From Eledone cirrhosa (Eukaryota): a stretch of DNA of 64,000 bases. Position numbers and translations under genes: made by a program. Position 1 is the stretch's first letter; each line of letters begins with the position of its first letter. The notes beneath the pieces were generated by a model. That model did no database searches. It saw nothing but the letters and a program-made list of their open reading frames with translations, and had not been told where the DNA came from. Positions 1-38,543 of the stretch are shown one piece after another. The stretch is from contig OZ024743.1 of NCBI GenBank assembly GCA_964016885.1, positions 351,292,001 through 351,356,000 on the forward strand. Direction: 5' to 3'.

Positions 1-1735
1 TGGTGATTGGAGTTTTGGGGGTTTTGTGGTGTCTCTTTTTTTTTTATATTTCCGCGGCTCTCCCTCTTCTTCACTTAAAAGAGAAGCAGCTTCATCCGTC
101 GATGAATAATCATAGTCAGATGTGTGGGGTAGGGGTATATTGTGTGATGGTGGTGTTTCGGTGTGTGTGTTTGTGGTAGTGTTTGATGGAGTGGGTTGGA
201 GTGGGGCTGTTGTCTCTGTTTTTTTCTGTTGTTGTTGGTTGAGTGTCAGTTTGTTTTGGTGTGGTTGCCCGTTTCGTCTGTCGTTGTACTTGTGGTGATG
301 GTGGTTGCTTTGGTGTTGGTGTTGGTAACAGTGTTTTCTTTTGTATTGTTTTGGTTGAGGGTGTTTGTAAAGAGCAGGAGGCCTTTAGGTGTGTGGTGCT
401 ATTGCAACGAAAGCAATGTGGTTTTCGTCCCTCAACTACAATGTTTATGTGGCTGTTGTTGTCCACCATTACTTTTTCTGGTATTTTGGAGATTCTTTCC
501 GGGCTCATTTGCACCAGAATCTCCAAATTTGTACCAGACCAGGTGTGTCTGGTTGACTTTTTGATGGAGAGAATAGTGTCTTTTCTCTCCTCTAAAAATC
601 CTGCCAATATCCACCAAATATTAATATTTGGTGGTATGCTTGTAACTCTAATTTTTTGTGTCCTTTTTTCCTAGGTATGTAGGGAAAAGGGTGTATTTTT
701 GTGACAGTATTGGCGTCACTGAATATCTTTGTGCAAGGGCCTCCCTTTTGAGCAGTACCGAAATACTCCCGTACTGTTTGGCCCTCTGCATAAAGTCAAT
801 GTCTGGCAATATCTGTATTAAGGCTGCCTCAATTTCCCCTTGACTGAGGAATGTTGGTCGTTTTGTTTCATTTGAAACAATTCTGAAGGTGATTGTCCTT
901 CGAAATGTTTCCAGACGAATTTCTGGGGGTGAGTTTATCTGAAATCCCCCGTTTTTACCGAAAGTGATAAACTCCTTTGCTTCAGAGAGCATCTGTTTCG
1001 CATTGGAGATATCGAGATCCGTGAAATCTTGTGTCTTGGTGACTGTTTGAGCAAAAGATTTTTTGGTGTTGTTGTTGTTGATGTTGTTGTTGTGGTTGTC
1101 GGGTTTTCCGTTTGTAGTTGTGTCAATAGTTTTATTTTCTGTTGTTTTTTCCGTCTGTTGTACTATGTGTGGTTCGATCTTGTTTTTATTTTTGTTGTTC
1201 ATATTGGTTTCCATAGTGACGCCAATACATGCGGAGTGAGAAGTAACGTTATTATTATTATTTGTGACTGTTTCTGTATAAGTTATTTTGTTGTTGTTGT
1301 TGTTGTTGTTGTTGTTGTTGTTGTTGTGGTTGTCGGGTTTTTCGTTTGTAGTTGTGTCAATTGTTTTGTTTTTTGTTGATTTTAGTGTGTGTTGTATACT
1401 GTGTGGTTCACTGTGCGATTCAAATTTGTTTGTGTTGTCTACACTTTCGTTACACAAAACTTTGTTGTTAACTGCCTCGATACAGGCAGAATTTTTAGCA
1501 ACGTTAAAGTCTATTTCTTTTCTTCAACATTCGCTCGTGTTCCTTGAACGCTTGCCATAGCTGATGGCAAAATATTAAAAATGTTTAAACAGTTTTCAAA
1601 TTAATTTCAAATTAAATTTAGATTGCCACTCAGCTAATCTACAAAACGATGTGTTTTTTTTAAACAAGAATTTCTGTTTTTTTGTAAATAAATTGACAGA
1701 AACTTACCAGCCAAATTGTGTCCGTTCAGCTACCA
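1..1735 (-). mobile_element. Tx1-type non-LTR retrotransposon, copy 1 (divergent subfamily; 5' UTR and ORF1 only, rest outside window)
   Basis: ORF1 pieces 648-1457 and 116-607 are clearly homologous to ORF1 of copy 2 (YGSISVLLK, FPTYLG, VEGRKPHCFRCNSTTHLKASC zinc knuckle); 5' end abuts a (GATA)n tract. Confidence 0.88.
116..1457 (-). pseudogene. ORF1 (gag-like, CCHC zinc knuckle) of copy 1, frameshifted near 640
   Basis: Two ORF-track pieces in different frames join into an ORF1 homolog with a CX2CX4HX4C motif and poly-Asn N-terminus. Confidence 0.8.
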
Positions 1736-1836
1736 AGAGAGATAGAGAGATAGATAGATATATAGATAGATAGATAGATAGATAGATAGATAGATAGATA
1801 GATAGATAGATAGATAGATAGATAGATAGATAGATA
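1736..1836 (+). repeat. (GATA)n microsatellite between copies 1 and 2
   Basis: Directly visible tetranucleotide repeat. Confidence 0.97.
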
Positions 1837-2100
1837 TATTTCTTTTATTTGCCACTAGGGCATCAAAAGTGGGACAAGTACAAAGGGGGGAGTTTACACA
1901 AAAAGGCGTCCTCAATAAGGAGGAGGCAATAACAAAATATAAAAATAAAATAAGATATAACAAAAAATAAAATTTTTAACAAAATCCTCAATAGAGAGGA
2001 GGCGCCTTGGGGGGTCGCACACACCCCCGAAAAAAGTGTGCAACCCTTCTCCTCAGGAGCACAGAGAAGGGGTGCTCCCTTGGTCTTTCATCTTCCTCAC

Positions 2101-36377: not shown

Positions 36378-36622
36378 TTCTGTCAGACGATTGAAAATTT
36401 TTTATGCCACAAAATTTTTAAAAACAGGTTTTTCACCCCTAGGAGGGGTAAAGATGAGCTGACCCACCGCCTGACAGTTCAGACGGGGGGTCAAGCTACA
36501 CAATAGTATCAAAATTAAAATTGAACTTACAAAATTTCCGCAATAAATTTGAACAAAACTTCTGCGCGAAGTGAATTACATCTACGCTGTAGAACAGACG
36601 ACAGCTAGATTTTTTTCCCCTT

Positions 36623-36729
36623 ATAGATAGATAGATAGATAGATAGATAGATAGATAGATAGATAGATAGATAGATAGATAGATAGATAGATAGATAGAT
36701 AGATAGATAGATAGATAGATAGATAGATA
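36623..36729 (+). repeat. (GATA)n microsatellite at the 5' end of copy 9
   Basis: Directly visible. Confidence 0.97.
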
Positions 36730-38543
36730 TCTTTCTTTATGACGAAATGAACAGAGAAAGGAGAGAAAAAACAGATATTGAAATATTAAGTTGAGAGGGG
36801 TGTATACATACATACATATATACATACATACATACATACATATATATACATACATATATATATATATATATATATATATATATATATATATATATATATA
36901 TATATATGGAGATGAAGGGGGAATTAAGTGATGGATAGTAGCAGGTGGAAGGAGGACTATTTAGTAAAAGAGCGTGGTAAATGTTTTGCACCAGCCTAGG
37001 CTGAATACCGGATGCGGAAGTAACAGGTAAATTACGGCTACAACCAACCTCTGCTAGTGACGTCAGTAATACTCATCGAATCGAAGCGATAGACTGATTA
37101 TAGTTAAAAATCGATCTTTGCAACTGGCTTGTTGATGTATGTGTGAGTGTGTGTGTGAGTGTGTATGTGTGTGTGTGTGTGCGTGTGTATGTATATATAT
37201 ATATATGTATGTGTGTTTGTGTGCGTGTGCGTATGTGTGTGTGTGTGTGTGTGCGTGTGTGTGTGTCTGTGTGTGTATGGTTCGTATTAAAAAAAACTGT
37301 TGCTGTATTGCTGTATTGATATTGAAGTAGCGTTAAACGGTATGACTGAATGAACGAATAGTAGAATGCATGAATAGATAAATGAATAAATGTTATAGGA
37401 TGAAAGAATAACAGAATGGAAGAATAAAAATCGAACGATGTCAAGAAGATATAATGACATTGCAGAGAGAATTTGTGAATTGGACCATTTGAGAATTGAA
37501 CCTGTATTCAGAAGAAAGATCATGTCAGTGTTGTGGAAAGATTGTAGTTTGGATTCCTTGGGTGGCGTACAGTTGTTTCTATGAGTGTGTCTGTCTCTAT
37601 GTGTGCGTGTGTCTGTGTGCGTGTATGTATGTGTATATATGTATGGGTGTGTGCATATGTTCATGATAGAGAGTATGTATGTGTGTGTGTGCCTGTGTTG
37701 CAGTCTGTGAGATTATGAATGCATCTGCATATGAATTTCCTTGACAATATGCATCAATATATATATATATATATATATATATATATATATATATATATAT
37801 ATATATATATATATATATATATATATATATATATATATATATATATATATATATATACATACATATATATACATACATATATATATATCTATATATATAT
37901 ATATATATATATATATATATATATATATATATATATATATATATATATATATAGGAAAATGGTTGACTCCGACGGCAGAACTCAAGCCGTTTCGGCGGCT
38001 ACTTCTGAGTATTCTGGTGCGTTATGGTCCATCTGGTTCCTTACCACACCTCCTTCGTTATATATATATATATATATATATATATATATATATATATATA
38101 TATATATATATATATATCCATACATATATATACATTAATGTACATTAATATATATATATATATATATATATATATATATATATATATATATATATATAGA
38201 GAGAGAGAGAGAGAGAGAGAGAGAGAGAGAGAGAGAGAGAGAGAGAGGGGGGAGAGAGAGAAAGAGTGAAGAATAACATGGTCGGCTGTACAAAAAGGGT
38301 TTTATTTACAGTATTAACAATTGTTAAGTCAAACAACGCCGTACGTTAAATCTATCCAAAGTACAGAGTATTCACAACCTCTAACTGGATTACCTAAAAC
38401 GATAACTTGTTATCCCATATATATATATATATATATATATATATATATATATATATGCAAAAGTTCTATTTAAATTGTTGGGATACAACAAGCAAATATT
38501 TTTATAACTGATATAAAGCACTTGACAAGTATTTGGAGTAGAT

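Follow-up and report, generated by a model that had tools for sequence, protein, structure and literature searches.

An L1-group retrotransposon lineage of Eledone cirrhosa inserts in one orientation at a short GATA-type motif and stacks head to tail

Several retrotransposons without long terminal repeats (non-LTR) that encode an apurinic/apyrimidinic endonuclease (APE) settle in microsatellites. Kibi and Koshi of teleosts occupy (TC)n and (TTC)n, and the crocodilian Tx1-1_Crp group lies at (TTCC)n/(TTTC)n (PMC4494074; PMC3812793). The microsatellite targets listed in PMC3812793 are ACAY, AC, TC, TTC and TAA, and how APE-type elements acquire such targeting is described there as poorly understood. 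Tx1L of Xenopus, whose endonuclease nicks its own target almost exclusively (PMC1950540), resides in Tx1D, and Tx1-Mar resides in Mariner-N4_AMi; SINEU-3 forms tandem insertions that sandwich the duplication (PMC1950540, PMC4494074). Here we analyze a 64,000-nucleotide stretch of Eledone cirrhosa DNA (OZ024743.1, positions 351292001–351356000; 3.0-Gb assembly), hereafter the window. Self-comparison and direct reading confirmed what an initial annotation of the letters had described, namely nine copies of an L1-group (Tx1-like) long interspersed nuclear element (LINE), all on the minus strand, in two arrays at 1–19783 and 28979–36729. We find that this lineage inserts in a fixed register and orientation, and that what it prefers is the short motif (G/T)ATA^G, not a microsatellite per se.

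The window copies share 70–97% of their DNA sequence pairwise and fall into about five subfamilies, where the initial annotation had counted at least three. Subfamily A comprises copies 2, 4, 6 and 7 and the 3′ part of copy 5 (88–97% identity), B comprises copies 3 and 9 (96.8%), C is copy 8, the 5′ half of copy 5 forms a group of its own, and E is copy 1 (76%). A 17-nt pattern located 4007 A-type 3′ ends in the genome (control pattern, 2). GATA stands in exact register (−6 to −3) at 3349 of them, with two or more units at 2452 and a single GATA at 897. By comparison, GATA occupies 0.43% of strand positions in 200 kb sampled at fixed genome intervals; the same sample holds 2 GATA, 230 TA, 39 CA, 14 CATA and 11 GA tracts of at least 16 nt. 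Inspected by eye, 27 of 30 B ends and 26 of 30 C ends also abut GATA, each set including the window’s own copy. Kojima (2015) called an element target-specific when one sequence type stands in more than 20% of its flanks (PMC4494074), and GATA here, at 3349/4007 (2452/4007 for two or more units), exceeds that share.

Because a 3′ count alone cannot separate a target from a tail, we fetched both ends of copies: all 40 of 40 A matches, 20 of 40 B matches, and 20 unselected copies (consecutive 3′-pattern matches 2–19, 21 and 22; two already seen were skipped, with no selection by identity or flank). Among 5′-truncated copies, GATA occurs in the adjoining 25 nt of 5′ flank in 36 of 47 (young A 23/25, B 1/3, unselected 12/19), against a background of 9.0%, and none of the 47 has the reverse orientation, TATC. 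The strand-specific association proposed initially is upheld genome-wide. Solo truncated copies, also expected to carry 5′ GATA, do so in young A (11/11), in 8 of 14 unselected copies and in neither of two B copies. The signal is strongest in the youngest copies (38/40). Same-lineage neighbors flank 21 of 40 A, 13 of 20 B and 5 of 20 unselected copies. Arrays are therefore common, but with 15 of 20 unselected copies solo they are not the usual state that had been supposed; solos are the majority.

Duplications define the site more closely. Scoring exact repeats of at least 8 bp that contain non-repeat bases and end at the 3′ junction, we found target-site duplications in 28 of 80 copies (median 17 bp), compared with 6.4 ± 2.2 (maximum 12) in 200 shuffled pairings, in agreement with the earlier claim that insertion duplicates the target. 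Twenty-five of the 28 end in GATA and three in TATA, and the next base is G in 23. G follows also where there is no second GATA unit (L037, L055, L062, L065, L158, L282 among the fetched loci; L275 is the exception). Five sites consist of a single GATA unit (L037, L065, L062, L055, L282); at one of them, L062, the target is a minisatellite in which the unit that was hit reads GATA and its neighbors read GACA. In L036, L037, L054 and L065, the duplications reveal that the target GATA directly abuts the element’s 3′ end without any tail. Because GATA lies on the 5′ side and duplications end in GATA or TATA followed by G, the site predates the insertion, and (G/T)ATA^G describes it best. Two host-repeat flanks recur near GATA tracts, one on the left (L084, L125, L127, L129, L229, L256, L277) and one on the right (L009, L058, L155, L159, L229, L272); some members of the family thus insert into other repeats, a habit shared with Tx1L and Tx1-Mar.

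Within the window, the copies and the tracts that separate them are arranged as follows.
1–1734, minus: 5′ part of copy 1, which belongs to subfamily E and is about 76% identical to copy 2; reading frames interrupted, remainder to the left of the window.
1735–1836, plus: GAGA/GATA tract separating copies 1 and 2.
1837–7563, minus: copy 2, full-length, subfamily A, both open reading frames (ORF1 and ORF2) open.
7564–7602, plus: AGA(GATA)9, element-type 5′ leader plus target tract.
7603–12823, minus: copy 3, subfamily B, 5′ truncation within ORF1, ORF2 split.
12824–12979, plus: GATA/GACA tract.
12980–16546, minus: copy 4, subfamily A, 96.9% identical to copy 2, truncated within the endonuclease.
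16547–16631, plus: (GATA)21 tract.
16632–19765, minus: copy 5, a chimera of an A-type 3′ end and the 5′ half of another subfamily, joined at 17257–17261.
19766–19783, plus: outer 5′ flank of array 1, (GATA)4.
28979–29013, minus: 13-bp micro-copy (28990–29002), consisting of the element’s 3′ end alone and flanked on both sides by an 11-bp duplication that includes unique bases.
29046–30006, minus: copy 6, A-type, 5′-truncated, inside the 3′ duplication of copy 7.
30028–30320, minus: copy 7, A-type, 293 bp, with a 5′ flank (30321) that matches the array’s unique left flank (29003).
30340–30773, minus: copy 8, subfamily C, 434 bp.
30785–36611, minus: copy 9, full-length subfamily B, reading frames broken, duplication at 30770 and 36619.
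36619–36729, plus: outer 5′ flank of array 2, the duplication plus (GATA)26.

Read on the plus strand, every 3′ end in the window consists of GATA, a variable dinucleotide and TTTCTTT, which in the sense of the element corresponds to AATAAA(A)GAAA, two bases and TATC; there is no poly(A). GATA also adjoins the 5′ end of each copy, the outer flanks at 19768 and 36623–36729 included, so that the initial reading of a GATA tract at every junction holds. Two junctions are short, with three units at 30321–30339 and two at 30774–30784. No copy lies inside any of the window’s other tracts of at least 12 nt (42 TA, 28 CA, 5 GA, 13 CATA). The claim that copies avoid (TA)n is therefore correct here; it does not extend to the rest of the genome, where L245, L252 and L255 are (TA)n sites. 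The GATA tracts at 23731 and 51046 likewise contain no copy. The 3′ end of another LINE-like repeat, with GATA or TA tails, lies at 23525–23749 and 50846–51064 (also in L104, L139, L143 and L145); it accounts for these two empty tracts and may be a source of target sites.

The junctions also record the order of events. An 11-bp stretch with unique bases is present three times (28979, 29003 and 30321), marking the duplications made by copy 7, with copy 6 inside, and by the micro-copy. A second such stretch, at 30770 and 36619, flanks copy 9. It contains the final four bases of copy 8, and comparison with long C-type copies shows that these four bases belong to the element; copy 9 thus inserted later than copy 8. 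Together with the pairwise identities, these junctions uphold the proposed sequential stacking of differing subfamilies. The 5′ half of copy 5 is 84.5% identical to subfamily A. We rejected the idea that copy 5 represents a non-autonomous family, as its chimeric join was found only at the window locus among 40 scored matches. Tiny copies of about 11–45 bp occur between GATA units, in the window (28990–29002, 36730–36740) and elsewhere (L063, L120, L226, L236, L253); these are aborted insertions that still duplicate the site. Array 1 runs about 6.9 kb leftward beyond the window, with one further copy and the remainder of copy 1 (L202). The initial annotation had mentioned neither this continuation nor the micro-copy, the duplications with unique bases or the chimeric nature of copy 5.

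The two open reading frames of copy 2 lie in one frame, with one stop codon plus 24 nt between them (5538–5565).
5563–7350, minus: ORF1 of copy 2, 595 amino acids, one CX2CX4HX4C knuckle at residues 323–339.
2101–5562, minus: ORF2 of copy 2, 1153 amino acids from stop to stop, first methionine at residue 9; APE endonuclease, reverse transcriptase (RT) and zf-RVT.

In Pfam, ORF2 matches Exo_endo_phos, RVT_1 and, below its cut-off, zf-RVT; an RNase H match was sought in this protein and is absent. Its best relative among solved structures is human L1 ORF2p (PDB 8sxt; E=5.5e-47, residues 12–863), with R2 proteins at 3e-19 or weaker, L1 and R2 being the only kinds matched. The domain order, an RT nearer to L1, 5′ truncation and target-site duplication identify the family as an L1-group non-LTR retrotransposon. 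A gag-like CCHC knuckle in ORF1 is a feature of the Tx1 clade. The ORF1 knuckle of copy 2 is visible as a motif, scores below the cut-off for Pfam zf-CCHC (E=0.051) and is not exclusive to Tx1, and no named Tx1 sequence occurs among the protein homologs listed or the cluster members; membership in the Tx1 clade is plausible. ESM Atlas returned generic endonuclease/RT clusters without taxa, and the closest named homolog is an Argonauta hians protein (67% identity over the RT region). The family is young and large, and the lineage was recently active: 46 of 75 fetched A loci contain a reading frame of at least 1140 amino acids, all 40 scored matches to the 3′ 464 bp of copy 2 are 100% identical, and copy 2 is 99.0–99.8% identical to most full-length copies fetched elsewhere. 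The family is present in contigs of several organisms, drawn from four sequencing runs.

Part of the GATA at the junctions appears to be brought by the element itself. We selected an additional 35 full-length A copies on the basis of their 5′ end; in 29 of them the sequence continues from that end into AGAGA. Because neither a pure GATA tract nor the (TA)n sites at L245, L252 and L255 can supply AGAGA, this leader appears to be element-borne. In L062, the element is separated from a clean 16-bp duplication by about five GATA units, and in L048 four units stand on the 5′ side without a regular duplication. By eye, extra 3′ GATA missing from the duplicated target is seen in L040, L048, L056, L088 and L152. 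These observations are most simply read as the product of a transcript whose start and end each lie a few bases inside the donor’s repeat flanks.

A background locus (L148:5600–8500) yielded a 67% relative that defines a sister family, with further loci at L171–L200 and L204–L223. Its ends abut TAAT at 2126 of 2635 and GATA at 0 of 2635. A two-base spacer is present here too, and duplications can be seen by eye in L179, L188 and L193. The sister family is older, its copies being about 83–86% alike; it too occurs in tandem arrays, and some of its copies lie in the TAA tails of a different common repeat. An RT tree of 38 unnamed rows, midpoint-rooted with 20 of the protein homologs and none of the others as outgroups, places the GATA-associated subfamilies in one clade (100/98) with the TAAT family as sister (100/97). 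One copy that branches deeper, L213, likewise has (TAA)n at its end, and this single case hints that GATA targeting is derived. The two clades share about 70–75% identity in the RT and 55–60% in the endonuclease, and the APE catalytic residues are conserved. The endonuclease hairpin aligned to L1 T192–S202, a region tied to target choice (PMC1950540), has Ser in copies of the GATA type and Ile in those of the TAA type; we did not count this difference as evidence, as it reflects a single, phylogenetically confounded split. Another 68% relative lies in a background locus at L201:5986–7800.

The account that we consider probable links these features in one cycle. The ORF2p APE endonuclease would nick the GATA strand at 5′-GATA^G-3′. 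The transcript, having read past AATAAA into the downstream (TATC)n, would let the nicked end pair with a few UAUC units, priming cDNA without poly(A) and at times adding extra GATA. Full-length transcripts may start a few bases upstream, in the donor’s repeat flank, so that new full-length copies would carry AGAGATA(G) plus up to about five GATA units, and a second nick about 17 bp away would duplicate the site. Because both sites left by an insertion point the same way, subfamilies that arrive later form head-to-tail stacks. The motif is most densely supplied by GATA microsatellites, but these are not required.

Several observations weigh against this account or narrow it. Strict (GATA)n specificity, as initially proposed, is not supported: besides the single-unit sites, 658 of the 4007 A-type ends have no in-register GATA, and the unselected 3′ junctions are GATA in only 15 of 20, with TATA in four and GGTA in one. 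The 3′ counts are partly circular if the RNA supplies GATA. The 40 A and 20 B loci are those closest to the window copies and thus biased toward young copies on C1 and C2. Seven of the 19 truncated unselected copies have no 5′ GATA, and two more (L274, L285) appear by eye to owe theirs to chance or a chimera, leaving 10 of 19. In 52 of 80 copies the duplication is pure repeat or absent and hence uninformative. The five cases of extra 3′ GATA could reflect later slippage or point mutation in unstable repeats.

The most serious competitor, which we regard as unlikely, holds that the endonuclease is loose, cutting at any ATA^ or at many sites, and that specificity comes nearly entirely from base pairing between the nicked end and UAUC units that the RNA carries by read-through, the target being inherited from the donor. 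The extra 3′ GATA at the five loci, the TATA-site insertions, the lack of poly(A) and the spacer bases between GATA and TTTC, which differ by lineage, would all suit it. Primer pairing, however, is unable to read bases past the nick, and the base after the nick is G in 23 of 28 duplications, the six sites without a second unit among them; the Tx1L endonuclease, moreover, is itself specific (PMC1950540). A further reading, tentative but somewhat less improbable, is that the element makes its own sites: GATA on both RNA ends would prime, and be deposited at, sites with one or no GATA, which would make the element a major source of the genome’s GATA microsatellites and its recent split from the TAAT sister a natural target switch set by the inherited RNA flank as much as by the endonuclease.

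The remaining models fare far worse. That (TATC)n is only a 3′ tail, with random insertion and arrays that merely show tails between neighbors, fits the element-borne share of GATA and the window’s other LINE-like repeat with GATA/TA tails; it is largely refuted by GATA on the 5′ side of truncated copies, where a tail is impossible and where all 11 young solos have it, and by the tailless duplications, and we give it very little credence. Equally improbable is an origin of the arrays by tandem duplication, unequal crossing-over or mis-assembly in place of repeated insertion. Copy 5 is a recombinant, and near-identical neighbors with the same junction exist elsewhere (L082/L083, L052/L053), but adjacent window copies differ by 9–30% and in their truncation points, and the end of copy 8 lies inside the duplication of copy 9, on which grounds we rejected duplication as the sole source. 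Least probable of all is unbiased insertion followed by better survival in repeat-rich, gene-poor DNA. Flanks are indeed often of low complexity; survival does not, however, produce a base-exact register in a single orientation, a signal that peaks in the youngest copies, or a sister clade in the same genome on a different motif without cross-use, and this model too was rejected.

The remainder of the window contains fragments of other RT-encoding elements (Pfam RVT_1) at 39344–43833 (plus) and 46066–46851 (minus), whose DNA is unrelated to the arrays, and long palindromes, 85–95% self-complementary, at 38544–38860, 47557–47952, 61412–61694 and 63188–63251, which are probably repeats resembling miniature inverted-repeat transposable elements.

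Within a single genome, sister clades have settled on different four-base motifs, and the one direction tested showed no cross-use. This contrast, together with the many intact and near-identical copies of one of the clades, offers a direct means of telling endonuclease recognition apart from RNA-primer pairing. The findings also suggest how a LINE could multiply a kind of microsatellite otherwise scarce in this genome (2 GATA against 230 TA tracts in the sampled 200 kb). As the habit itself is already known, the surprise is moderate.

Human L1, whose ORF2p is the best solved relative, differs in using a TTTT/AA target and a poly(A) tail, and in its ORF1. Dong, a member of the R4 clade, shares its repeat target with the TAAT sister clade. 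Dong targets (TAA)n (PMC3812793), and Dong-R4 is listed for Octopus vulgaris (PMC13282606); the R4 clade, however, has a restriction-like endonuclease (PMC4640811), whereas the TAAT clade has an APE. R1Bm is reported to depend on target sequence further downstream, and the RNA of SART1 may pair with the target (PMC7265360). Like these R1-clade elements and TRAS1, the GATA lineage inserts in one orientation into short repeats, with RNA-target pairing proposed or needed for accurate priming. SART1, by contrast, belongs to another clade with telomeric or ribosomal DNA sites and retains poly(A), and the GATA lineage has neither poly(A) nor a telomeric role. The likeness to telomeric arrays (SART/TRAS, HeT-A/TART) drawn initially therefore holds for geometry and not for location: the window contains no TTAGGG dimers, copies are dispersed, and the locus is internal, at 351.3 of 378.8 Mb, about 27 Mb short of the contig end.

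The Octopus vulgaris repeat paper reports 13 L1-Tx1 families, and its main text contains neither ‘target’ nor ‘gata’ (PMC13282606); ‘gata’ and ‘tatc’ are likewise absent from the main text of PMC4494074. We found no GATA-targeting LINE in the literature, a search that did not extend to Repbase, Dfam, Kojima and Fujiwara 2004 or the supplements of PMC4494074. The habit of microsatellite insertion is known, and the GATA landing site is probably new, provisionally so. With Tx1L and Tx1-Mar, the lineage probably shares a sequence-selective APE endonuclease and sites that in part recur in other host repeats; theirs, however, is a complex site in a DNA transposon, and the GATA lineage uses a 4–5 bp motif genome-wide. 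Closest in habit are Kibi, Koshi and the crocodilian Tx1 group, which are also APE-encoding L1-group LINEs that prefer microsatellites. Judged by their descriptions, the GATA lineage is set apart from them by its GATA/TATC target, its ends abutting GATA or TATA and not (TC)n or (TTC)n, and by a short minimal motif of which a single GATA or TATA is used.

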